Below are positions 1 through 40,469 of a stretch of DNA of 40,469 nucleotides, piece after piece. This DNA is from a virus (Duplodnaviria > Caudoviricetes). The translations under genes were made by a program, and so were the position numbers. Within the stretch, counting starts at the first letter, position 1. Every line of letters starts with the position of its first letter. A model generated the notes under the pieces. It made no database searches. It saw only the letters and a program-made list of their open reading frames with translations, and had not been told where the DNA came from. The stretch lies in the IMG/VR virus record IMGVR_UViG_3300049924_000013, positions 1 through 40,469 of that record, one strand, 5' to 3'.

Positions 1-143
1 CTGCACTGTTATGGTGCGCACCAGGTTGGTGCATAGGTAGACTGCACAGTCTAGGCTGTGACTATACCGTTCAGTCACCGACTGCACAGGCTATACAGTG
101 ACTGCACAGTCTAGTATAGGGGGGGGGTGGTAGAGGCTGTGCT
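1..143. repeat. Terminal direct repeat / circular overlap, left copy
   Basis: Matches 40328-40469 except the poly-G run (9 G here, 8 G in the right copy). Confidence 0.95.
2..33. promoter_or_regulatory. Two overlapping NtrC-like boxes (left copy of the repeat)
   Basis: TGCACTGTTATGGTGCG (2-18) and CGCACCAGGTTGGTGCA (17-33) vs NtrC consensus TGCACY-N5-GGTGCA. Confidence 0.6.
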
Positions 144-216
144 GTTGAATTTTGCTGAAGCCTCATAGCCATACGAAAAAGACTGCACAGGCTTTATCAC
201 TGCACAGGCTGCACTG
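38..216 (+). repeat. Cluster of short CTGCACAG/CTGCACTG repeats
   Basis: CTGCACAG at 42, 82, 102, 183 and 200; CTGCACTG at 1 and 209; TAGACTG-CA-CAGTCTA dyad at 38-53. Confidence 0.85.
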
Positions 217-543: not shown

Positions 544-572
544 TTGACATTGGTTTTGTATTTTGGTATAAT
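544..572 (+). promoter_or_regulatory. Consensus sigma70 promoter for the packaging/structural arm
   Basis: TTGACA (544-549), 17 bp spacer, TATAAT (567-572), with an extended -10 TG. Confidence 0.9.
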
Positions 573-683: not shown

Positions 684-1043
684 TTGACTCTTGATAGTGG
701 TATAAAAACAACACCTGCTAGAAAAGGCCGTCCACCTAAAGCAGCCATTGAGGCTAAGAAGCATCGTGGCGCTGTAGGCCGTCCTGCAGGAGATGCTGCT
801 CGTATTCAGGAGTTCAAGGCTAGGTTGCTTGGCACAAGCGGTGAGAAGGTTATAAATACCATCCTCCGTAAGGCTCTGGACGACACAGACAAAGACCAGG
901 CAGCAATGCTCAAGATGTGTATTGACCGTATCCTACCTATGTCGGCTTTTGAGGCTGTGAAGAAAGAATCGATGCCTCAGATTAGTATTAACATTACAGG
1001 GCTGCAAAGCCCCTCTGTCTCTGGTGAAGTTGTAGATGTCTGA
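684..1043 (+). CDS. terS: Putative terminase small subunit
   Basis: Small basic protein (RKGRPPK, GRP motifs) directly upstream of and overlapping the large terminase. Confidence 0.65.
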   Translation: MTLDSGIKTTPARKGRPPKAAIEAKKHRGAVGRPAGDAARIQEFKARLLGTSGEKVINTILRKALDDTDKDQAAMLKMCIDRILPMSAFEAVKKESMPQISINITGLQSPSVSGEVVDV

Positions 1044-2298
1044 ACTAAACTTTCAGCTACTCAAATGGCAGCAGAAGGTTTTTTCAGACCGACATAGGTT
1101 TAAAGTGGTGGCAGCGGGTAGACGCTGTGGTAAGTCTAGGTTGGCTGCAGTGACCTTAATCATCAAAGCCTTAGAAGCTCCAGAAGGCTCTGCTGTGTTG
1201 TATGTATCTCCAACACTAGGGCAGAGTAGGCAGATCATTTGGGACTTGTTGATGGACATTGGCAGACCTGTTATTAAGGCTGCACACATCAACAACATGG
1301 ATATCACTCTTGTCAATGGACGTAAGATCCATGTACGAGGAGCAGATAACCCTGACACCCTGCGAGGCTTATCGCTGTACTACGCAGTCCTAGACGAAAC
1401 AGCCTTTATTAAGCCTGACACTTGGGAAAAGATTATCAGGGCTTCGTTGTCTGACAAGAAAGGGGATGCCTTGTTCATCTCCACACCAGACAAGCGCAAT
1501 TGGTTCTATGACCTGTACAAGCTGGGGTTAAGTGGTGACGATGAAGAGTGGGCTGCATGGCACTTTACCACCAAGGATAATGAGACTATAGACCCCAAAG
1601 AGGTTGAAGCGGCTAAACGGACATTGTCCACATTCGCTTTTAAGCAGGAGTATGAAGCCTCCTTTGATAACGCAGGCTCTGACATCTTTAAGCCAGAGTG
1701 GTGGAAAGAGAAAGAAGAACCTAAGACGGGTGACTACATAGTCGCTATCGACCTTGCTGGTTTCTCTGAGGTTGAAGCCTCCAATGCCTCTGCAGCTAAG
1801 AAGCGTCTGGACGAAACAGCCATTGCCATTGTGAAGGTTGAGGATGACGGTAAGTGGTGGGTTGACGACATCATCCACTTTAGAAAGTCTGTAGACGCTA
1901 CAGCCGCTGAGATCTTTAGAGTCATTGCAGAGTATAAACCTCGGATGATAGGGATAGAGAAGGGAATAGCCCGTAACGCTGTCCTAGGGCCTCTAGAAAC
2001 CCTTATGAGGCAGTATAACAAGTGGTGTCACCTTGAGCAGCTTACGCATGGCAACAAAGCCAAGATAGACCGTGTGGTCTGGTCTTTGCAGGGTAAGATG
2101 GAACATGGTCGGGTTTCCTTCAACAAGGAAAAGGACTGGTCAGAGTTTATGGATCAGTTGTGGATGTTTCCAACAGCAGGTGTCCATGACGATATGGTGG
2201 ATGCATTGGCTTACATCTCTCAGCTTGAGACTTCAGCTTATGTCTCAGACTATGAAGAAGAAGACTACGAAGTTGCTGACGTAATAGCTGGCTATTAA
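1036..2298 (+). CDS. terL: Terminase large subunit
   Basis: Walker A AGRRCGKS, Walker B AVLDE, motif III ISTP, RNase H-like nuclease IDLAG...HDDMVDA. Confidence 0.97.
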   Translation: MSELNFQLLKWQQKVFSDRHRFKVVAAGRRCGKSRLAAVTLIIKALEAPEGSAVLYVSPTLGQSRQIIWDLLMDIGRPVIKAAHINNMDITLVNGRKIHVRGADNPDTLRGLSLYYAVLDETAFIKPDTWEKIIRASLSDKKGDALFISTPDKRNWFYDLYKLGLSGDDEEWAAWHFTTKDNETIDPKEVEAAKRTLSTFAFKQEYEASFDNAGSDIFKPEWWKEKEEPKTGDYIVAIDLAGFSEVEASNASAAKKRLDETAIAIVKVEDDGKWWVDDIIHFRKSVDATAAEIFRVIAEYKPRMIGIEKGIARNAVLGPLETLMRQYNKWCHLEQLTHGNKAKIDRVVWSLQGKMEHGRVSFNKEKDWSEFMDQLWMFPTAGVHDDMVDALAYISQLETSAYVSDYEEEDYEVADVIAGY

Positions 2299-9259: not shown

Positions 9260-10084
9260 ATGCTCGGCTTCGGCGCAATTGCTCAAGGTTCGGTTGCTGA
9301 CAGTCCGGTATCGGGCGTTGCTGGCGCGTACACACTAACGGCCCTCGGTGGTTCTTACACCTTCACAGGCGCAAGTGCGGTACTCACCAAGTCAACCACT
9401 GCGGTCAACTACACCCTGACGGCCCTCGGTGGCTCTTACGCCCTGACAGGCGCGAGTGCCAGCCTAAACCGCAACCGCAAGCTGACCGCTACGGGTGGAA
9501 CGTATGCATTGGCGGGTCAGAGCGCCATCCTGCTAAAGACCAAGCGAATCGTATCCACAGGCGGCACATACGCCATCACAGGTCAGCAGGCCACGCTCCT
9601 GAAGAGCAAGGTTCTTGTTGCCTCTGGCGGCAGCTACGCGCTATCCGGTCAACAGGTTGTCATCACCTACACAGGCACGGCAGCGGCTTACACCCTGACG
9701 GCTCTAGGTGGCTCTTATTTGCTGACAGGCCAGCAGGCCACACTGCTCAAGTCAAAGACGCTGGTAGCTACTGGCGGTGCATACGCCTACACGGGCGGTG
9801 CTGCAATTGTCGAGAAAGACCGCAGGCTGACGGCACAGGGTGGCTCCTACGTTGTCACAGGGCAGCAGGCGACGATTACCAAGACAACCCCTGGTTCTTA
9901 TGTTCTGACGGCTTTGGGTGGTAGTTATGCTATTACAGGGGCTTCAGCCACTATAACGGCTAGTTCAAGTGCGATAGCTCGTGGAGGTAGTTCTGCTAGA
10001 CCAAAACAGCCTAAACAGCAAGTCTGGATTGATGATGATGAAGTAATTGAGATTATTTCTATGTTTATGCTTGAAATGTGTTGA
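9260..10084 (+). CDS. Repeat-containing structural protein
   Basis: MLGFGAIA N-terminus; about ten ~21-25 aa L.A.GG.Y...G..A repeats; acidic-hydrophobic tail DDDEVIEII. Confidence 0.75.
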   Translation: MLGFGAIAQGSVADSPVSGVAGAYTLTALGGSYTFTGASAVLTKSTTAVNYTLTALGGSYALTGASASLNRNRKLTATGGTYALAGQSAILLKTKRIVSTGGTYAITGQQATLLKSKVLVASGGSYALSGQQVVITYTGTAAAYTLTALGGSYLLTGQQATLLKSKTLVATGGAYAYTGGAAIVEKDRRLTAQGGSYVVTGQQATITKTTPGSYVLTALGGSYAITGASATITASSSAIARGGSSARPKQPKQQVWIDDDEVIEIISMFMLEMC

Positions 10085-32130: not shown

Positions 32131-33729
32131 TTAGAGTGAATTATCCACCTGTTTCATACGTCCTGTTGCTTTATTGTAAAGAAGGGAGCCAGCATCGCCT
32201 GTGTCTCCACTAAACCTTGACTTTAACACCCTAATATGTGTTGTGTTGCGGCTAACAAGGTCTTCATCCTGTCCATTCCGCTCCAGCCCTATCACCATAT
32301 CGCTCAATTGAGCAATAGCTGCACTCCCTCGTAGCTGTGAAAGTGAGGTACGCGCCCCATCTTCGTGGCCTTTGCCCTCACCACGGCGTAGGTGCGACAC
32401 ACAAATTAGGCTAATGTTAGTTTCCTGCACCAACGTGCGTAGTTTTGTCATCAATTCATCAATCGCCTTACGTTCATCTGCGTTTGCCCCGTCAGAAACC
32501 AGGAGTGAGAGGTGATCTAAAAAGACATAGCCACACTCTAGTCCCTTCGCCATGTATTTGATACGGGAGATTACGTTGTCAATTCCTAAGCTGCCGAAAT
32601 GGTCAAACATGAACACCTTACCACTTCCAATAGTAAGGTCATACGCCTTCTTCAATTCATCATCAGTGACGGCAACATCAGGTAGATGAATAGGTTTATC
32701 TAAGGCCAGTGACATCAAGCTCCGCGCTGTTTTATGGATGCCTTCCTCAAGAAACATAAGCCCGACATTATCACTTGTCTTCTGGAGGATATGATAAGCA
32801 ATCTCCCGCACAAACTGGCTCTTACCTAGTCCTGACCCTGCGGTTACAGTTACTAACTCCCCTTTGCGAATACCGTAGGTGAGCGTATTCAACTCAGACC
32901 AAGGATACATTACATCTGATTTAGTAATGGGCTTATTAACCAACTCCCAAAGGGCTGTACCTGCGACGATACCGTCAGGGACATAGGATTCTGCAGCCCA
33001 CCAGTTTTTATTCCATGCTTCAACGTCACCGGCGACAAGGTAGTCACAGGCATCCTTATGCTTCTGGTGCTTAATCACCTTGGCTTTATTCCCGAATAGC
33101 TCTGCAACCTGCGCAGCCGCCTTTTTCCCTGGTTCATCACCGTCAAAGGCAATGACAATGTTGTCAAAGCTATCCAGCCACTCGTACTGCTCTTTACAGC
33201 CCTTCAGAGCCGCTGCAGCACCGTTCTTAATAGACACCACAGGCCACTTGCTGCCCATCATCTGGTAAGCCGCCAGCGCGTCAAATTCACCCTCTACAAT
33301 GGTGATGTACTTTCCACCTTTAGTGAACAAGTGTTGACCGAATAGCGCAGCCTCGGATGCCGACCCGTCAAAGCTAAACTGCTTGTCAGGGTAACGGGTC
33401 TTTACAGCCACCAACGCACCGTCCTTGTTCTGGTATGGGAATAACACCTTACCCTTGCTGGTCTTTACACCATACTTCTGAACGGTGGTATAGGTGATGT
33501 TACGGTCTTTGACGGCTTCGATGTCGGCTTCGTTGTATTGCTGGTGGTTCATTGGTTTCTTTGTAGGTGTTGAAGGTCTGACTATTTCTTTGTTGTCGTA
33601 ACTTAGCTGCTCACAGGCAAAGCAGTAGGCTTTACCGTCTGAGTAGGTGGCTCTGGCATCACTGCTTCCACAGTCTGGACATCCTGTGTGGCCTGTGAAG
33701 TTTGCTTTGCCCCGAAAATTGTGTCCCAT
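32131..33729 (-). CDS. Primase-helicase (T7 gp4-like)
   Basis: Zn finger CPDC...CFAC, Toprim EGEFDA/FDGD, Walker A AGSGLGKS, LDHL, SHL.R, LRGS. Confidence 0.97.
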   Translation of the reverse strand: MGHNFRGKANFTGHTGCPDCGSSDARATYSDGKAYCFACEQLSYDNKEIVRPSTPTKKPMNHQQYNEADIEAVKDRNITYTTVQKYGVKTSKGKVLFPYQNKDGALVAVKTRYPDKQFSFDGSASEAALFGQHLFTKGGKYITIVEGEFDALAAYQMMGSKWPVVSIKNGAAAALKGCKEQYEWLDSFDNIVIAFDGDEPGKKAAAQVAELFGNKAKVIKHQKHKDACDYLVAGDVEAWNKNWWAAESYVPDGIVAGTALWELVNKPITKSDVMYPWSELNTLTYGIRKGELVTVTAGSGLGKSQFVREIAYHILQKTSDNVGLMFLEEGIHKTARSLMSLALDKPIHLPDVAVTDDELKKAYDLTIGSGKVFMFDHFGSLGIDNVISRIKYMAKGLECGYVFLDHLSLLVSDGANADERKAIDELMTKLRTLVQETNISLICVSHLRRGEGKGHEDGARTSLSQLRGSAAIAQLSDMVIGLERNGQDEDLVSRNTTHIRVLKSRFSGDTGDAGSLLYNKATGRMKQVDNSL

Positions 33730-33794
33730 GCTTTGCTATATGCCTCGTGGTTGGTTGGACGTTGTTTACTTCCCTTTCCTGCCTCTCTTGTCAT
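33603..33794 (-). CDS. Small protein with GKGS..RP...W..IFG motif
   Basis: AAGGA RBS, ATGA coupling; motif familiar from small phage proteins; overlaps the primase 5' end. Confidence 0.55.
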   Translation of the reverse strand: MTREAGKGSKQRPTNHEAYSKAWDTIFGAKQTSQATQDVQTVEAVMPEPPTQTVKPTALPVSS

Positions 33795-33976
33795 TGTTCA
33801 ATCCTTGAAAGTGTTTCACAGACTTCATTATACAACGCCTCTACATAAAACAACTGGTCATGCTTAATATTACTTCGTAGGGTGTTGCGTATTTCAGACA
33901 GCATAGCCCAGGCTTCTGCTGCATGGTGAAGCATATCAGCTTCTGCTCTGTCTTCTGTTGAGAAGGTATAGTTCAT
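33791..33976 (-). CDS. Hypothetical protein
   Basis: Start at ATG 33976 (ATGA overlap). Confidence 0.6.
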   Translation of the reverse strand: MNYTFSTEDRAEADMLHHAAEAWAMLSEIRNTLRSNIKHDQLFYVEALYNEVCETLSRIEQ

Positions 33977-34254
33977 ACACCCCCCAGCTGTGCGCGGAGA
34001 GCTTCGCAAGACCAATCCAAGTCTTGAGCAATGCTGCAAAAGTCACCGCATTCTGGAACTCTTGCCTTCGCCGTATTTATCATCGCTGTATTGCAGGCAC
34101 GTTCTATAGCTTCAAGCGCCTCCCGCATCAACGCTTCGTCAGCACGGCGGCTGTCCAGCAAAGCATCACGCTCACCTTGCAGCCTCGCGCATCCAGCGCT
34201 TAAGTCAGCCGCCGCCTTGTTTACCATGTGGTACTTCATTTCCCATTCAGTCAT
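33973..34254 (-). CDS. Hypothetical coiled-coil protein
   Basis: AAGGAG RBS, ATGA coupling. Confidence 0.65.
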   Translation of the reverse strand: MTEWEMKYHMVNKAAADLSAGCARLQGERDALLDSRRADEALMREALEAIERACNTAMINTAKARVPECGDFCSIAQDLDWSCEALRAQLGGV

Positions 34255-34463
34255 TCTGGTTTCTCCTTCATGGCTGCGGCAATGTCTAGGTCAAGGTTTG
34301 GATGCGCTATGAACGCCATGTCAAGCATCTCCCTCGTCCTCTCAGCATCCTGCACAACAGTACGCACCGCATCGGATAGAGCCTTGCGCTGGCTTGTAAC
34401 TTGTTCAAACGGCCATGCTCTTGCATACGCATCAGCCAGCGCCATCAATTCGGTGTGGGTCAT
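34251..34463 (-). CDS. Hypothetical protein sharing its N-terminal module with 34460-35122
   Basis: MTH..LMALADAYA.A...R.ALSDA shared; AAGGAG RBS. Confidence 0.7.
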   Translation of the reverse strand: MTHTELMALADAYARAWPFEQVTSQRKALSDAVRTVVQDAERTREMLDMAFIAHPNLDLDIAAAMKEKPE

Positions 34464-34474
34464 AGTTTCTCCTT
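34423..34474. repeat. 52 bp direct repeat, copy 1 (RBS + gene start)
   Basis: 47/52 identical to 35082-35133. Confidence 0.85.
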
Positions 34475-35122
34475 TGGGCTGGTGTACAGCGGCTCGAACC
34501 CGTTGCGTGGGTACACACTGAATTCATATTCAACATCGCCGTACTCGTCATGGGAAATGTCGTAGTACGCTACCGGCGGTGCTTTCTGGCGCAGTTCAAA
34601 GATGTGGTTTATCTTCCGCATCTCGTCTTGCAAGTCTCCGTTTTCCAGACCAAGTTCCATGTTCGCTTTGTGCAGTTGTTCAATCTCTGCTTGCATGGCG
34701 TTCAGGGTGTCGGCGTTTACTTCGTGCACAGCTTTCCACTTCTCAATCTCGGCTTCCGCTTCATTCAGCGCCTCGTCCCTGCGTAGGTCTGCGTTGTCGG
34801 CTTTGAGTTTTTCAATATCAAGTAGCCGCTCTGAGTAGGCTCGGTCTCCTTCGTCAAGCAATCGGCGATAGTTGTTGGCTGCGTATGTCTGCACACCTAA
34901 TTCTTTCTTCAAGCGTCCTGTTTCTGCCTCAAGTTCAATCGCCTTTCGCATGAATGAGTTCTCTGATTTGTCGAAGGCATCGAGGTCATCGCACACCTGT
35001 TTCAGCGCATCGGATAGGGCGGCTCGGGTGTCACGACGATTTGTTGTGGTGTCGCTCAATGGAAAGTATTGAGGTGCAGCGGCATACGCATCAGCCAGTG
35101 CCATCAAATCTTTGTGGGTCAT
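34460..35122 (-). CDS. Modular coiled-coil protein (Ea22-like architecture)
   Basis: Shared N-module, long heptad region, C-terminal PVAY...PLY module. Confidence 0.65.
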   Translation of the reverse strand: MTHKDLMALADAYAAAPQYFPLSDTTTNRRDTRAALSDALKQVCDDLDAFDKSENSFMRKAIELEAETGRLKKELGVQTYAANNYRRLLDEGDRAYSERLLDIEKLKADNADLRRDEALNEAEAEIEKWKAVHEVNADTLNAMQAEIEQLHKANMELGLENGDLQDEMRKINHIFELRQKAPPVAYYDISHDEYGDVEYEFSVYPRNGFEPLYTSPKEKL

Positions 35123-35133
35123 GGTTTCTCCTT
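35082..35133. repeat. 52 bp direct repeat, copy 2
   Basis: 47/52 identical to 34423-34474. Confidence 0.85.
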
Positions 35134-35568
35134 GGTGTAGTAGTGCGTCTGGTAGTCCCGCATTGGCTCACTAGGTGCGTCGAGGGCGGCACGGGCTTGG
35201 TCAAACGTAGGTTTATTCCACTCGTCTTCATCCATGCCAAACTGCGTAAGCATTGCATTCAGAGCAGAGCGCAACTTCCCTCCAGATGGCGTGACAAGCT
35301 CATCCCAATGGCAACGTGGGCACTGACCGTTTTTGTCGGTGCTGGTGCCTGAATACCCACACACTCCACAGATTGCAGGCTCACTCGGTGCGTCGAGCAG
35401 GGCGCAGATTTCATTGACCAATGCGTTGAACGTTGCCAGTGTTGCGTCAGACCGCTTGTTCTCGCTCCATGATTCGCTGTCAGCCTGTTGCCAGTATGTT
35501 TGTCCAAGATTGAATGCTTGTTTCAGCACCTGCTCCAGCACCTCGCGGTCAACTAAGATTTTGGTCAT
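35119..35568 (-). CDS. Modular hypothetical protein with CxxC...CxxC finger and duplicated LDAPSEP linker
   Basis: CGVC...CPRC; LDAPSEP twice (19/20 nt identity, 35165-35184 vs 35378-35397). Confidence 0.65.
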   Translation of the reverse strand: MTKILVDREVLEQVLKQAFNLGQTYWQQADSESWSENKRSDATLATFNALVNEICALLDAPSEPAICGVCGYSGTSTDKNGQCPRCHWDELVTPSGGKLRSALNAMLTQFGMDEDEWNKPTFDQARAALDAPSEPMRDYQTHYYTKEKP

Positions 35569-35762
35569 TTCATACTCCTGATAGCTTGGCGTACATGGGC
35601 TTCCATCTGCACACTGCCGCCGTTAAATGCAACTTCGCCACAAGCCGCTTCCGCACAAGCCTCAACCACGGCATCGCGGTAGGCAAGCATTTGGGCTTCG
35701 GTGTAGATGTCGCCGTATCCACGGATGTAGTCGCGGGGTTCTGGTAGTGGCGGGAGTGTCAT
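35565..35762 (-). CDS. Hypothetical protein
   Basis: LPPLPEP...YTEAQM.AY pattern; coupled ORF. Confidence 0.6.
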   Translation of the reverse strand: MTLPPLPEPRDYIRGYGDIYTEAQMLAYRDAVVEACAEAACGEVAFNGGSVQMEAHVRQAIRSMK

Positions 35763-35944
35763 TATTTCACTTCTTTCCTGGTTAATTCATCCATGATGTC
35801 TGCAAACACAGTCAGTACACCATACTTAGCTACAAAGTCTCTAACACTCCATAGCATAGTCTGATACGAAAGAGCTTCATAGACTGCATAGTCTTCATAG
35901 CCTTTGTCTTCAATGCCAATCATCATTTGTTTTACTTTACCCAT
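35762..35944 (-). CDS. Hypothetical protein
   Basis: MGKVKQ start after GGAG. Confidence 0.6.
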   Translation of the reverse strand: MGKVKQMMIGIEDKGYEDYAVYEALSYQTMLWSVRDFVAKYGVLTVFADIMDELTRKEVK

Positions 35945-35945
35945 C

Positions 35946-36140
35946 TTAGTTCTCCAAATAGGTATCATCACCTATATAGGTTATTATACCAGCAGAGTCT
36001 AAGATTTCACTAACACTTTCAGCATCTTCCTCATAGAGTGTTGTACAACTACAACATACATCTAGGTATTCATCAGTTTTTGTGTCAACCATAGTGGCTT
36101 CATAGTCGGTCAATAGGGCGTTGCAGTGTATGCATCTCAT
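35946..36140 (-). CDS. Small zinc-finger protein
   Basis: MRCIHCN.LL.D.E...YLD.C..C; GAGG RBS. Confidence 0.7.
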   Translation of the reverse strand: MRCIHCNALLTDYEATMVDTKTDEYLDVCCSCTTLYEEDAESVSEILDSAGIITYIGDDTYLEN

Positions 36141-36264
36141 TTAAGGGCCTCTTTATCAGTTAAGGTAGGGTGGTATAGGCTTCATTGGTTTGAAGCCTTC
36201 TAGGTGTGTTTAAACGCTTATGAGCGCCATAGTTTAACAAGGGCTAGTATGATGGCTGCAAAAC

Positions 36265-36345
36265 TCATAGCCAGCTCATCAAAATAGCTTGCAGGAGTAT
36301 GGTGGCAACAATGATTGATGCCGCAATGATGGCTTCGTAGATCAT
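36265..36345 (-). CDS. 26 aa hydrophobic peptide
   Basis: MIYEAIIAASIIVATILLQAILMSWL; GAGGG RBS, ATGA overlap. Confidence 0.5.
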   Translation of the reverse strand: MIYEAIIAASIIVATILLQAILMSWL

Positions 36346-36524
36346 AGGTTCCCCTCAATGTTCTTTTTCAAGGCTTCGCACTTGCTGGCAATATTAGCCA
36401 GTGCAAGCATGGCCTTCTCTGCCTCCTCCACTGTTAGCGTTTTGTTCAGGGCTATGTAGTCAATACCCGCCACAAGGGCTTCAATGTGGCCGAACCAGTA
36501 GCTGTTTAAATTTCGGTTATCCAT
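36342..36524 (-). CDS. Hypothetical protein
   Basis: Start MDNRNL after AAGG. Confidence 0.6.
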   Translation of the reverse strand: MDNRNLNSYWFGHIEALVAGIDYIALNKTLTVEEAEKAMLALANIASKCEALKKNIEGNL

Positions 36525-36528
36525 TTTC

Positions 36529-36792
36529 TTACCTTTCGTAATTGGTTTCGTAGTCACGCTTCCAGGAATCGTCGTAATCATCATCTTCATCTTCCGTTAC
36601 GGATTCTAAGATCCTTTCCTCCCACAGTGCAATCATTTTAGGGTCAATGTAGTCGATCATCTCTACTGTACCAGCCCTAACAGAATAGATGTCAATAGAG
36701 GCCTCATAGCGTGGCTCATTCCAGCCATCGCCTCCAGCCTCGGTGTAATCGTACTCTACCACAATGCCATCATCAACCGTGTATGCGTTCAT
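36529..36792 (-). CDS. Acidic hypothetical protein
   Basis: GGAG RBS; D/E-rich. Confidence 0.65.
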   Translation of the reverse strand: MNAYTVDDGIVVEYDYTEAGGDGWNEPRYEASIDIYSVRAGTVEMIDYIDPKMIALWEERILESVTEDEDDDYDDSWKRDYETNYER

Positions 36793-36794
36793 TT

Positions 36795-36926
36795 TCAATT
36801 CTCCAGATCAAAATAAGATTGTACCTTTTCCCACAAGTACAGCAAGGCCGTACCGTGTAGGAGATCATACTCCATTAGTGCCAAATCCATGTCACTCTTT
36901 TGCAACAGCTCTTCTAATTCGTTCAC
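36795..36926 (-). CDS. Small hypothetical protein (43 aa, not in ORF track)
   Basis: GTGA overlap with the methyltransferase stop; fills the gap. Confidence 0.5.
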   Translation of the reverse strand: MNELEELLQKSDMDLALMEYDLLHGTALLYLWEKVQSYFDLEN

Positions 36927-37525
36927 AATGAACCCCACTGATCCGCCATTGCGGCTGCGATGCCTTTGAATGTAGTGCTTCGCAGTTTCCAGCGATCTGC
37001 ACTGGGTGGTAGCATATGGATGCGTTGTTGTTCTTTCATTGGTAGCTTGTTTGTCTCTTCCAATAGGTTGGTCGTAGGCTTCAATAGCGGGAGATTCTTA
37101 AGCCAGAGCCCTGTGCCCTTTTTCTCCATGTGCCCGAACATCCACGGCTGAATAACCTGGTTTTGTTTCCCTGCCCCGGTGCGTTCAATTGCGTACTTGT
37201 GCATTATCGGATTCTCAAGGGCTATTTTGTCAATCGGAGCATTCCAAAGGGCTTTGAAGAATGCCGCTCCATCATCCAGCTGCGCCCACCTTTCTGGCCT
37301 CCGGTGAAGCCATGAAACCCCGCTATTGGTGAGATAGGTGCACGGCGGGTGACCGATAAGCATATCCCAACCATCATCGATGATATCGAATACATCACCT
37401 TCGTAGTGTGGGCCGTTCAATGGGGCATCACTTGGCAATAGGTCGCACGATACCGCGTCATGACCCTTTGCAATGAACGCATCACGCACAGTACCGCTAT
37501 ATTCGCAAGCTACTAGGATTCTCAT
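36923..37525 (-). CDS. Short C5-cytosine DNA methyltransferase-like protein
   Basis: VACEYSG (degenerate motif I), HPPCT (motif IV), ENP (motif VI), RS.TF.GIA.AMA.QWG C-terminus. Confidence 0.8.
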   Translation of the reverse strand: MRILVACEYSGTVRDAFIAKGHDAVSCDLLPSDAPLNGPHYEGDVFDIIDDGWDMLIGHPPCTYLTNSGVSWLHRRPERWAQLDDGAAFFKALWNAPIDKIALENPIMHKYAIERTGAGKQNQVIQPWMFGHMEKKGTGLWLKNLPLLKPTTNLLEETNKLPMKEQQRIHMLPPSADRWKLRSTTFKGIAAAMADQWGSL

Positions 37526-37728
37526 TTGTTACTCCAAAGGGTTTCGACGTTAGCACAAGCTGGACTATTTTCATAGCGCATTTGGTCTTCGTGCGGGTAT
37601 ACGATAGCGTATGAGCGCCCGCCAAAGGCATTGTCGTATGCCACTATTTTGCTGCATGGCTGATCATCAGCATAGCGCCCATTGTTTGCTATCATGTGCA
37701 TAGCTGTTGCCTTGTCAATTGTTGCCAT
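37522..37728 (-). CDS. Hypothetical protein
   Basis: Start MATIDK after AAGGGG. Confidence 0.6.
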   Translation of the reverse strand: MATIDKATAMHMIANNGRYADDQPCSKIVAYDNAFGGRSYAIVYPHEDQMRYENSPACANVETLWSNK

Positions 37729-37729
37729 G

Positions 37730-37939
37730 TTAAACCCCTTTGCTAAAGTTGAAAAGCCGTTCTGATACTGGAATAAAACCATCCCATGCGTTTATAAAGT
37801 ATTCCATAGATTGAAAACCCTCAAGCTGTACGATGGCAACACATTCCCGGAAACTGCTGCAGGTTTTACCGTTGACGGTAAAGTGTCCTTTTTTGGGTAG
37901 AGGTTTCCAATCTACCCTACTAAGTGTTGATGTTACCAT
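37730..37939 (-). CDS. Hypothetical protein
   Basis: AAGGGG RBS, operon context. Confidence 0.55.
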   Translation of the reverse strand: MVTSTLSRVDWKPLPKKGHFTVNGKTCSSFRECVAIVQLEGFQSMEYFINAWDGFIPVSERLFNFSKGV

Positions 37940-38025
37940 GTTATCCCCTTAATAGTTTCAACGATAAACGGAATGGATAGCACTAGTGCCACCAGAAAAG
38001 CCTGGAAATAGTCTTCATTATGCAT
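37933..38025 (-). CDS. 30 aa single-TM peptide (not in ORF track)
   Basis: MHNEDYFQAFLVALVLSIPFIVETIKGITW; AAGGGG RBS. Confidence 0.5.
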   Translation of the reverse strand: MHNEDYFQAFLVALVLSIPFIVETIKGITW

Positions 38026-38027
38026 GA

Positions 38028-38285
38028 TTAAGCCCCTTTGTAGAGTGTTTCACCTTGATACGATACTGATACGATTGTTTCCCGATTGATCGAACGATAC
38101 CCTTCGGATTGCACATCATAGGCAATGATGTACTTTTCACGGTCTACAGTGCACATTCCACCCGCTAGGTGCTTTGTAACCCCCAGTCGAGCCGTCATTG
38201 TCCTAAGTGATCCATCGCGTTTTACAAATACGACAGTGAAAAACCGGCCGTTGCTATTGTCGATGATGTTAGAGAGTAGAGACAT
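38028..38285 (-). CDS. Sm-like/SH3 beta-barrel (WYL_2-like) protein
   Basis: FFTV.F.K.DGS.R.M.ARLGV...YD....GYRSI pattern. Confidence 0.65.
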   Translation of the reverse strand: MSLLSNIIDNSNGRFFTVVFVKRDGSLRTMTARLGVTKHLAGGMCTVDREKYIIAYDVQSEGYRSINRETIVSVSYQGETLYKGA

Positions 38286-38298
38286 GATAATTTCCTAT

Positions 38299-39018
38299 TT
38301 AGATTGCTTTGATGTTGATAATTTTACGTGCCACGCTATCGGCACGTTTAGCACCTGTGCCATGTGCAGGGAACCCGACAATTACGCTTCTATCGGCGCG
38401 TGAGCATAGCTGGCAAGTGAAGCATGAAACATTTTCCCGAATAGCCGCAGGACAGACTACTACCTTGTTCCCTGCTGGTGTTGTAAGGTTCTCTTCCTGA
38501 GTGATTGGCAATACAACGACAACGGGTAAACCTGTACTGTATAGGGTGTCAGCATGGTCTAGATCATTCGCCGATAAATTCACAGTAAAGCCCCCAATAT
38601 TGCACTCTTCCACAATCGACAGGTTCTCCTCTATGGTCATATCGTGGTGAGTGTATGTAAACCCTTTAAGGTGCTGTGAAGCTTCGCACAGTAGGCGCAT
38701 GGCTCCAGCATCGATTAAACCGCCCACATGGGGTAAATCACCGGCTTGGTTGTATCTGTAGATACTGCCCTCTTCAATCGATGCAATGGTGGCACAGTGC
38801 TCATAGAAGCCCTCACCACGTTGGTTAGCCGTTACTGCGTTCCAATGAATCCGCAGAGGGCCTGATTCGGCATAGCATCCATTTCCAAAGAATGGGCATA
38901 CCGGGCTACAGGATTCCCGAGACGACGTGGTAACGGGCATTGGACCTGTTTTCATATTGGTACTCACCATAGTGATATGGTAGGACATGGCTAGGGTGAT
39001 TTTTGATGGGTGAAACAT
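38299..39018 (-). CDS. Cys-rich, Gp88-like / radical-SAM-like Fe-S protein
   Basis: CxxxCx6CYA, R....GD, YTH, VNLS and C-terminal CPA...CxxCxxC, F.AHG. Confidence 0.65.
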   Translation of the reverse strand: MFHPSKITLAMSYHITMVSTNMKTGPMPVTTSSRESCSPVCPFFGNGCYAESGPLRIHWNAVTANQRGEGFYEHCATIASIEEGSIYRYNQAGDLPHVGGLIDAGAMRLLCEASQHLKGFTYTHHDMTIEENLSIVEECNIGGFTVNLSANDLDHADTLYSTGLPVVVVLPITQEENLTTPAGNKVVVCPAAIRENVSCFTCQLCSRADRSVIVGFPAHGTGAKRADSVARKIINIKAI

Positions 39019-39019
39019 T

Positions 39020-39142
39020 TTACCAATTCCCTGTAAGAGTGATTGTAAGGGTTGCATGATGGGCTACGAACCCGAGCCCGTCCATAGTTAGCTTACGAAT
39101 TCCTGCATAGAATGCGCTGTCGGTATCGTATACGATTTTCAT
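39020..39142 (-). CDS. Small hypothetical protein (40 aa, not in ORF track)
   Basis: MKIVYDTDSAFYAGIRKL...; AAAGGG RBS; fills the gap. Confidence 0.5.
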   Translation of the reverse strand: MKIVYDTDSAFYAGIRKLTMDGLGFVAHHATLTITLTGNW

Positions 39143-39145
39143 GGC

Positions 39146-39334
39146 TTACCCTTTCTTGTTAAGTTTGGCGATAGCTTGCTCGGTGAGTTTGTAGCTATCG
39201 AATTCAATGTTATAGCCCAACACGTTGAGCGCTTGTTCTACTGCCTTTGCATTATCTAATGTAGGGCTAGACTGTTTAATGAGCTTGGCCACGTTGATAA
39301 GGGCCGTTACTGTGTGCAGTGATTTAGGTACCAT
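39146..39334 (-). CDS. Early hypothetical protein
   Basis: Start MVPKSL after GGAAAG, just downstream of sigma54 site P3. Confidence 0.6.
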   Translation of the reverse strand: MVPKSLHTVTALINVAKLIKQSSPTLDNAKAVEQALNVLGYNIEFDSYKLTEQAIAKLNKKG

Positions 39335-39359
39335 GATTTTCTTTCCAAAGGTTAAAGGG

Positions 39360-39491
39360 TTATTCTGCTTTAGCTTGCAATTGTTGTGCCAACTTTGCGG
39401 CCAGTGCAAGCCATTGAGAATAGCCCATAGGCTTTGCTTTGATCTTGATCATCCGGGCGCAATAGATAAAGTATTGGTTGGATTGTGACAT
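39360..39491 (-). CDS. Early small protein (43 aa, not in ORF track)
   Basis: MSQSNQYFIYCARMIK...LAQQLQAKAE; GAAAG RBS. Confidence 0.5.
   Translation of the reverse strand: MSQSNQYFIYCARMIKIKAKPMGYSQWLALAAKLAQQLQAKAE
39376..39391 (-). promoter_or_regulatory. Sigma54 promoter P3
   Basis: Minus strand TGGCAC-AACAA-TTGCA. Confidence 0.7.
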
Positions 39492-39529
39492 GGTTTTTCT
39501 TTCGTTAGTGCTGGAAATTAAATTCTATC

Positions 39530-39877
39530 TCAAATTGAGTACATTTTACGACCATATCCGACGATAGTGGCTGCGCTGTCTAATGGCTTTTCTGTTTCAG
39601 CCACTACAAAGCAGTCATAGCGGTATGGATCATATGTAATGCGAGTGCCTGCAGTCTCGACACAGTCCAATGCTACTAGAGTGCCCACAATGCCTGCGTG
39701 CACATTCTTTTGTTTCTCACGCAGAACACGTTGCCGTCCCGCTTCGCTAACCTTGAAGGTGCAATTTGCAAGGGTGATCTTATCGCTATGGAAAATCACC
39801 TTACCCTTGTTCTCACCTTCCATAGCCTTTACAGACCACTTCTTGAGCTTGAGATTCATGTAGACAAAAACTTTCAT
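39530..39877 (-). CDS. Conserved phage early protein of unknown function
   Basis: VY.NL....WS.K...F.VSEAGRQRVLREK.KNVHA...Y.PY pattern familiar from many phages. Confidence 0.75.
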   Translation of the reverse strand: MKVFVYMNLKLKKWSVKAMEGENKGKVIFHSDKITLANCTFKVSEAGRQRVLREKQKNVHAGIVGTLVALDCVETAGTRITYDPYRYDCFVVAETEKPLDSAATIVGYGRKMYSI

Positions 39878-39902
39878 ATAGGCTTTCGTAGGTTGGTGTT
39901 AA

Positions 39903-40100
39903 TTACAGAGCAATGATCGTGCCATTGATTGATTTGAATAGTGACTGTGTGTTTGTCTGTTTGATTATCTGATCAATCTCTGCCTGTGTCTTAGCGTTAC
40001 CTGAACGATAGATGCAGGCCACAGTAGCTGCAAAGTATGATGGATAGCAGCCTACAAGGGCCACTGCTTTGTTGATTTGTTTCTGGTCGGCTTTGTTCAT
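39903..40100 (-). CDS. First early gene, hypothetical
   Basis: GAAAG RBS, about 32 nt downstream of the predicted P1 start site. Confidence 0.65.
   Translation of the reverse strand: MNKADQKQINKAVALVGCYPSYFAATVACIYRSGNAKTQAEIDQIIKQTNTQSLFKSINGTIIAL
39909..39924 (-). promoter_or_regulatory. Sigma54 promoter P2
   Basis: Minus strand TGGCAC-GATCA-TTGCT. Confidence 0.72.
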
Positions 40101-40142
40101 GATAGCGCTTTCTAAGGGTTAGGGTTAGGACTGCTTAGACTA

Positions 40143-40158
40143 TGCAATTGCCGTGCCA
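40143..40158 (-). promoter_or_regulatory. Sigma54 promoter P1 heading the early arm
   Basis: Minus strand TGGCAC-GGCAA-TTGCA; intergenic, 42 bp upstream of the first early ATG. Confidence 0.82.
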
Positions 40159-40206
40159 CGTCCAAATGCAGGGTTTTATAGGGTGTTTTGGTAGATATTG
40201 GCGAAT

Positions 40207-40266
40207 AGTGACATTTTTGTCCAGACAATATTGTCACTTCACTGACTAACCTGTCACTTAGTGACA
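40207..40266. promoter_or_regulatory. Cluster of GACA/TGTC dyads (candidate upstream activating sequence)
   Basis: GACA-TTTT-TGTC (40210-40221), GACA-ATAT-TGTC (40224-40235), TGTCACT-T-AGTGACA (40252-40266). Confidence 0.55.
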
Positions 40267-40300
40267 ATGCCTGCAGCATAGCCCTACACACTGCATAGCC

Positions 40301-40360
40301 TGCACCACTATGGTGCACAGCACAGGCCTGCACTGTTATGGTGCGCACCAGGTTGGTGCA
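40301..40360. promoter_or_regulatory. Three NtrC-type enhancer boxes
   Basis: TGCACCACTATGGTGCA (40301-40317), TGCACTGTTATGGTGCG (40329-40345), CGCACCAGGTTGGTGCA (40344-40360). Confidence 0.7.
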
Positions 40361-40469
40361 TAGGTAGACTGCACAGTCTAGGCTGTGACTATACCGTTCA
40401 GTCACCGACTGCACAGGCTATACAGTGACTGCACAGTCTAGTATAGGGGGGGGTGGTAGAGGCTGTGCT
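40328..40469. repeat. Terminal direct repeat / circular overlap, right copy
   Basis: Matches 1-143 with one fewer G in the homopolymer. Confidence 0.95.

Follow-up and report, generated by a model that had tools for sequence, protein, structure and literature searches.

NtrC-type boxes upstream of a sigma-54 early promoter in a phage genome: a likely far half of a two-input enhancer for host activators

The window, by which we mean the whole stretch of DNA analysed here (40,469 nucleotides), is a whole phage record of 40.3 kb. Terminase, portal, capsid, tail and lysis genes are read from the left on the plus strand, and the small early genes, a primase-helicase, DNA polymerase A, ThyX and ribonucleotide reductase are read from the right on the minus strand. 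A scan of 65 ORFs against PHROGs and Pfam revealed no RNA polymerase, sigma factor, AAA+ activator (bEBP) or integrase. The genes used below are the following.

684..2298, plus strand: putative small terminase (by position) and large terminase, which served as clade markers
39903..40100, minus strand: first early ORF (ORF1), 65 aa, without a named family
39530..39877, minus strand: second early ORF, 115 aa, Phage_L5_gp82 family (PF25735)
39146..39334, minus strand: third early ORF, read from the ATG after the sigma-54 site P3, 62 aa, without a family

Searches for a cultured relative gave no match with terS among 50,697 phage records, a best match of only about 25% with terL, and a best match of 46%, to Pelagibacter phages, with the DNA polymerase. 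The 340-bp regulatory stretch returned 25-bp chance matches only, and searches with the endolysin and with ORF1 homologs yielded no host assignment. Apart from the two runs that may be the source of this DNA, the sequencing runs that contain the early region come from freshwater or freshwater sediment, and no RNA run is listed among them. Elsewhere in the window, a putative tail-fibre ORF contains five imperfect 35-nt repeats (9303-9939). Two relatives carry extra ORFs around terS that look by eye like homing endonucleases (L001 at 1270-1730 and 2158-2690, L009 at about 943-1283 and 1728-2208).

The exact sigma-54 pattern TGGCAC-N5-TTGC occurs three times in the window, against a shuffle mean of 0.20, always on the minus strand and each time ahead of a small early ORF. 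These sites are given here together with a sigma-70 match on the structural side.

40144..40158, minus strand: sigma-54 site P1, exact -24/-12 elements; the leader to the first early ORF is 32 nt
39910..39924, minus strand: sigma-54 site P2, an exact match located at the 3' end of ORF1; without a box of its own
39377..39391, minus strand: sigma-54 site P3, exact; without a box of its own
544..572, plus strand: sigma-70 promoter-like site, 12/12; precedes the terminase genes and points away from the early arm

In a relative from run X6 the spacer of P3 is the only part of that site to change, and it does so in sequence while keeping its length. Over the early arm (33500-40469) the number of sigma-70 matches is what chance would give, 11 against an expected 9.6; no strong one stands before the first three early genes, and none upstream of P1 scores above 9/12. 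As for the site at 544-572, the consensus is perfect, and late timing of the structural arm would then need either late entry or repression.

Upstream of P1 lie three matches to the 17-bp NtrC consensus TGCACCAnnnTGGTGCA, which was taken from the accessible part of PMC8743547. Their distances are counted from the inferred P1 start near 40132; for P2 and P3 the predicted starts are near 39898 and 39365.

40301..40317, no strand assigned: NtrC-type box 1, 0 mismatches to TGCACCAnnnTGGTGCA; centre at about -177 from the P1 start
40329..40345, no strand assigned: NtrC-type box 2, 3 mismatches; centre at about -205; 28 bp from box 1 and 15 bp from box 3, out of phase with both
40344..40360, no strand assigned: NtrC-type box 3, 1 mismatch; centre at about -220; spaced 43 bp, or about four turns, from box 1
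2..33, no strand assigned: second copies of boxes 2 and 3, which lie within the duplicated end

At up to one mismatch the window holds three matches, including the duplicate copy at 17-33; the shuffle mean is 0.02 and none of 100 shuffles reaches three. An earlier note on this DNA had described one perfect box and two near-consensus 17-mers at about 177, 205 and 220 bp from P1, and this description is confirmed and stands above shuffles. Boxes 2 and 3 share 2 bp, and the outer pair is the one in helical phase, the adjacent spacings being off-phase. The region shows the sequence features of an NtrC-activated sigma-54 promoter: at least two boxes, -24/-12 elements facing an ORF, and an enhancer distance between them. 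Between the enhancer and P1 there is no IHF consensus, the best match having 3 mismatches; an IHF site belongs to the IHF-dependent subclass only, and glnAp2 does not need one. Of the complete glnAp2-like unit that had been proposed for the boxes and P1-P3, the pairing of the boxes with P1 is supported, but P2 and P3 lack boxes of their own and the IHF consensus is missing.

Neighbouring CTGCAC, CTGCAT and CTGCAG units differ from the box at 5-10 positions, and the putative NtrC boxes are more than plain CTGCAC repeats. In a relative from run X8 the box region is kept, with 9 differences, and the P1-P2 segment is replaced. Among the in-box differences listed, those at 40334/40335 (box 2) go towards the consensus and two fall in the spacer.

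Two further features of the window ends have to be considered with the boxes.

40328..40469, plus strand: duplicate of 1-143 with one G fewer, probably an assembly overlap
116..172, plus strand: clade-conserved G-run element bordering the variable regulatory zone; may mark packaging or a genome end

The earlier note had placed two of the boxes inside a terminal repeat. Boxes 2 and 3 are indeed duplicated at the two ends, but the duplication is exact for 126 nt and then shows a single-G difference in the G-run, and a contig from run X3, possibly the source of this DNA, continues beyond the window end with the longer G-run. Since the repeat breaks at the G-run and a contig reads through, the duplication is probably an assembly overlap and less so a physical terminal repeat. 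The G-run (window 116-172 and 40443-40469), followed about 30 bp further on by TTT(G/A)C(T/A)G(G/A)AGCC and an A-tract, is conserved upstream of terS. All 25 viral matches to this element are clade members, and 24 have terS inside the fetched locus; the element may possibly signal packaging or a genome end. Another family of metagenome contigs (L047, L054, L056, L061, L064 and similar) has a G-run pattern without terS of the window's family.

Between the NtrC boxes and P1 sits a second set of palindromes (40209-40256), of the kind found ahead of pilin genes, which the earlier note overlooked.

40243..40256, no strand assigned: box of the pilin-promoter type (TGAC-N6-GTCA) with 1 mismatch; its start lies 98 bp upstream of the -24 hexamer
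40223..40236, no strand assigned: box of the pilin-promoter type with 1 mismatch; its start lies 78 bp upstream of the -24 hexamer
40209..40222, no strand assigned: box of the pilin-promoter type with 1 mismatch; its start lies 64 bp upstream of the -24 hexamer

A search for a promoter with a box of this type gave matches in 26 of 41 genomes of one Burkholderiales genus, with 0 in the control. All ten loci read in that genus were pilA, with the box 107-109 bp before the pilA sigma-54 site. A pattern search across the order gave four matches, one of which is a pilA promoter, from this genus; the other three were dismissed, not being pilin promoters. Among 30 pilin promoters sampled across the order, an N7 form occurs in 12, the N6 form in three and a TGTC-N8-GACA form in two, and none has an NtrC box. 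Unseeded motif finding in the same 30 recovered an A/T tract only. Exact combined patterns for the second motifs were found in 0 of 31 genomes and, for the exact phage form in a sample of another family, in 0 of 151. The TGTC-N8-GACA form stands ahead of prepilin-type genes in five of its seven host matches. UAS-dependent control of pilin by RpoN has been described (PMC6528607, in the part available), and we name the candidate activator PilR because the regulated gene is a pilin gene. For P. aeruginosa the accessible portion of PMC8035640 gives a PilR consensus of TGT-N11-ACA, with divergence reported in another genus. Inspection by eye of window positions 40209-40268 found no TGT-N11-ACA, and the motif does occur in the relative L001 and in the host sequence L351.

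Relatives were gathered by terS alignment, which gave 157 terS loci. Of these, 105 had the anchor and at least 450 nt of early side and fell into 75 clusters; the 72 clusters with at least 650 nt were scored, counting an NtrC box at up to 2 mismatches and a forward sigma-54 site if 200 nt or more separated it from the anchor. With about 3200 terS stretches of this kind in the collection, the sample is biased to the best matches. Use of the anchor pattern alone in metagenome contigs was dropped: its matches were mostly chance or unrelated sequence, and therefore only terS-matching loci were retained.

Among the 72 non-redundant relatives, 18 have an NtrC box, 20 a forward sigma-54 site and 13 both. 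In all 13 paired loci the sigma-54 site lies 70-200 bp beyond the box and faces the first early gene, and no reverse-facing pair was seen in the 18 box-bearing relatives. The association exceeds chance (Fisher OR 17.5, p 5e-6; cross-locus permutation mean 2.8, with 0 of 10000 reaching 13), although these p-values overstate independence since the 13 paired loci are related. Shuffled controls gave 1.6, 1.15 and 0, coding sequence 1 of 72 and late-side non-coding sequence 3 of 72. The spacing of neighbouring boxes is near whole turns in 18 of 21 cases (10, 19-23, 30-31 or 52 bp), the exceptions being the 15 and 28 bp of the window and one of 78. In nine of the paired loci an ORF begins 29-48 nt after the inferred start, and one locus has a perfect sigma-70 site further on. 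The earlier note had named as evidence against its reading boxes that belong wholly to the CTGCAC repeat field and are not conserved with the sigma-54 sites. What we find instead is nearby units with 5-10 mismatches and 13 of 18 box-bearing relatives paired.

The pairing is scattered on a terL tree made by the quick method from 63 of the 72 rows, with 11 of the 13 paired loci among them; it changes nine times, with at least seven changes forced by strong branches. Five of the 18 box-bearing relatives lack an intact paired sigma-54 site, and orphan sigma-54 sites occur in 19 of the 72. At twelve of the 13 paired loci the NtrC boxes come without any pilin-type box in the interval 30-170 bp from the promoter, which leaves NtrC as the sole candidate activator there. 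The window is the only one of the 13 with both enhancer types on one promoter. In two relatives with NtrC boxes, L192 (early-strand 447-473) and L246, the sigma-54 site is broken. L192 also has a sigma-70 promoter overlapped by a weak NtrC-like box, a layout that could serve repression.

The closest relative, L001 (terL 88%), keeps the sigma-54 sites and the pilin-type set and has no NtrC box; CTGCAC repeats are present there without boxes. Besides window/L001, swapped pairs are L253/L241, L013/L014 and L204/L214. Identity between L013 and L014 is 99% over the late side and 48% over the early side, L253 and L241 have near-identical terL and differing cassettes, and L204 and L214 have near-identical first proteins behind different cassettes. 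In L014 and L241 three TGTC-N8-GACA boxes stand in place of the NtrC boxes. L214 has a third enhancer-like triplet, of the GGCA-N5-TGCC type with a period of about 21 bp, 60-110 bp before its sigma-54 site, and the gene behind it follows NtrC boxes in L204. At the level of sequence, the putative enhancer cassette is exchanged across the clade while its flanks stay. Since L001 keeps the sigma-54 sites and the pilin-type set without an NtrC box, nitrogen would be one swappable input and not the gate.

The picture is different when all viral contigs are considered. With an exact NtrC box and a sigma-54 site at 83-143 nt in either orientation, 34 stretches had the sigma-54 site facing away from the box and 40 had it facing back; by cluster (35 in all), 10 were forward only, 14 reverse only and 11 both. 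No orientation bias is thus seen across viral contigs. Many of the viral-contig loci are dense arrays beside G-runs with back-to-back sigma-54 sites and Fur-like, IHF, DnaA and parS consensus motifs, many have no ORF behind the sigma-54 site, and 13 of the 74 have terS of the window's family. The variable zone of the clade itself contains some host-type site in 53 of 72 relatives, with at least two DnaA boxes in 24, Fur-like sites in 15 and parS in six. DnaA, Fur-like and parS sites were absent from the coding controls, and none was found in the window's own zone. The absence of orientation bias, the other host-type sites, the orphan sigma-54 sites and the unpaired boxes together suggest that some of the sites serve something other than promoter activation. 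Two to five DnaA boxes and parS-like and Fur-like sites were seen in the 650 nt left of the G-run in L028, L031, L037, L200, L204, L230 and others. Next to the G-run, and without a gene following closely, sigma-54 sites stand in tandem or back to back in L023, L036, L044, L229, L235 and L243 and in the clusters of L281, L285 and L301.

Eight genome bins contain relatives, of which two are labelled Burkholderiaceae or beta proteobacterium; the rest carry unrelated labels, and binning errors are likely. In the two betaproteobacterial bins an NtrC box stands ahead of torF, urease, cyanophycin synthetase and amidase genes. The torF gene, in a torF-glnK locus, has two boxes 35 bp apart and then an exact sigma-54 site. 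Two genomes of the Burkholderiales genus have a pair of boxes, spaced by 22 bp and lying at about -186 and -208 relative to the sigma-54 site, ahead of a gene which we take to be glnA from its N-terminus and its position upstream of ntrC. In enterobacteria the UAS is usually 100-150 nt upstream (PMC5491218, in the part available), so that the window boxes at -177 to -220 are farther. For such hosts, however, the far box distance is normal, given the glnA boxes at about -186/-208. An ntrC match above the cut-off was found in all four genomes searched in the candidate genus, itself a putative host, and bin G001 fell below the cut-off. The exact NtrC-plus-sigma-54 pattern occurred in 0 of 5 host genomes because the distance range and the -12 element were too strict for glnA promoters. 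The hosts are probably freshwater Burkholderiales. A phage-like contig in the Burkholderiaceae bin (L271, G001:C223) has an NtrC box among small divergent-looking ORFs.

Sigma-54 polymerase requires an upstream-bound AAA+ activator, and NtrC serves in this role under nitrogen limitation (PMC5491218, available portion). Because sigma-54 promoters need an activator, the early start of the phage would depend on host signalling. The boxes match NtrC, and we think it rather likely that they are the more distant half of an enhancer with two inputs, used by host activators to switch on P1. Once the early end is inside the cell, host sigma-54 polymerase would bind P1 as a closed complex. In nitrogen-limited cells phosphorylated NtrC at the in-phase boxes 1 and 3 (-177 and -220) could loop to P1 and open it. 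Alternatively, in cells building type IV pili, the activator of pilin genes, probably PilR, could do so from the nearer boxes (about -84 to -118). P2 and P3 may share the same enhancers from a greater distance. The likely outcome would be an OR gate giving dependable early expression in starved or piliated hosts, and not a nitrogen lock. L001 without NtrC boxes, and the sister pairs that swap enhancer types, make it likely that P1 has two inputs and that nitrogen is not its sole gate. The nitrogen-coupled infection put forward in the earlier note thus keeps its basis in boxes that resemble an NtrC enhancer in geometry and pairing, but loses nitrogen as sole gate, given L001 and the pilin-type set.

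A wider reading, which we hold to be possible but doubtful, is that a large aquatic podophage clade carries a swappable sensor of host state at the end that enters first. Activator cassettes (NtrC, PilR-type and others) would be exchanged before the same early genes, and the window would carry two of them as an OR gate. In T7, host transcription pulls the genome into the cell. If P1 transcription did the same here, entry would await a nitrogen-limited or pilus-building host.

Other explanations deserve attention. The abundance of host-type sites could mean that the zone collects sites for host proteins (NtrC, sigma-54 holoenzyme, DnaA, Fur, ParB, PilR) whose binding ratchets, tethers or masks the first-entering DNA, or titrates the proteins, with P1 activation incidental. 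Such sites in 53 of 72 relatives, with DnaA, Fur-like and parS sites at 0 in coding controls, would fit this, as would the lack of orientation bias across viral contigs and the back-to-back sigma-54 pairs by G-runs. A precedent has been proposed in the eight DnaA boxes at the T5 injection stop (10.1101/866236, available part). Yet pairing in the clade is one-way (13 against 0), limited in distance, phased and ends at an ORF, and the window zone has no DnaA, Fur-like or parS site, so we regard this explanation as conceivable and on the whole improbable. It is also possible, though we consider it unlikely, that the pilin-type boxes are the real enhancer and that the outer NtrC boxes damp or tune it, by loop competition or by repression through unphosphorylated NtrC, so that nitrogen modulates. 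The nearer boxes are at textbook UAS distance (PMC5491218, in the portion available) and suffice in L001, and box 2, which overlaps box 3, lies on the opposite face of the helix from it. Against this explanation stand the 12 of 13 paired loci that have NtrC boxes only, and host glnA has the same far distance.

NtrX-like or Fis-like regulators have a helix-turn-helix similar to that of NtrC. The candidate hosts have several NtrC-like regulators, and such a family member, or a phage protein, might occupy the boxes instead. However, the box in candidate hosts precedes glnA, torF-glnK, urease, cyanophycin synthetase and amidase genes and is found in 0 of 30 pilin promoters, and a phage activator was not found among the 65 ORFs; a different binder is thus a quite remote prospect. 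Least probable of all, to our minds, is that the boxes are vestiges of CTGCAC repeats or of recombination and no longer matter. Two boxes do start with a CTGCAC unit, L001 has the repeats without boxes, and the zone is hypervariable. But the pairing in the clade largely refutes this, boxes are also found in relatives that lack the repeats, shuffles give an expected 0.02 matches, and the changes in the run X8 relative, among those listed, go towards the consensus or lie in the spacer.

The literature searched, a collection with few subscription journals, yielded no account of NtrC or PilR enhancers in phage genomes, and the earlier note knew of no described equivalent. If confirmed, the arrangement would tie phage success in nutrient-poor waters, in a way readable from sequence, to nutrient status or piliation, and the hosts and receptors of uncultured phages would become predictable from non-coding DNA. 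Sister pairs with exchanged enhancers are natural material for direct tests.

Several known systems can be compared with the locus. Phage T5 has DnaA boxes in non-coding DNA near its genome end, in the injection-stop region, with a role proposed (10.1101/866236, in the part available). T5 has one site type in a conserved array, whereas the window's clade has a hypervariable mix and the zone of the window no DnaA box. The Pseudomonas phage YuA is virulent and is reported to depend on both sigma-54 and sigma-70, with one sigma-54-like promoter mapped, and the words 'enhancer' and 'NtrC' are absent from the available text of PMC10914365 on this phage. Unlike YuA, the window opens its early arm with three exact sites and has identifiable activator boxes. 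CtrA, another host regulator with sites in phage genomes, is not a sigma-54 enhancer-binding protein. Its sites cluster in intergenic regions of pilitropic and flagellotropic alphaproteobacterial phages, where 'lytic deferment' is discussed, and link phage genes there to the state of the host and the making of its appendages (PMC9437464, accessible part); the window's sites would do likewise. In contrast to the CtrA phages, the sites in the window putatively act on the earliest promoter, and their type swaps between close relatives.

The nearest likenesses are to host promoters. As in PilS-PilR (Nps-Npa) and sigma-54 control of pilin, the nearer boxes match the palindrome found 107-109 bp before pilA, although the phage boxes are about one to four turns closer to the sigma-54 site than in host pilA. 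As in NtrC/sigma-54 promoters such as E. coli glnAp2 and the glnA of Burkholderiales, several 17-bp consensus boxes lie upstream of -24/-12 elements, and the distance is that of Burkholderiales glnA. Unlike the glnA systems, this arrangement is on a phage in which no integrase was found and drives small early genes without known function; a second enhancer type lies between the boxes and the promoter, and three promoters accompany one box cluster.
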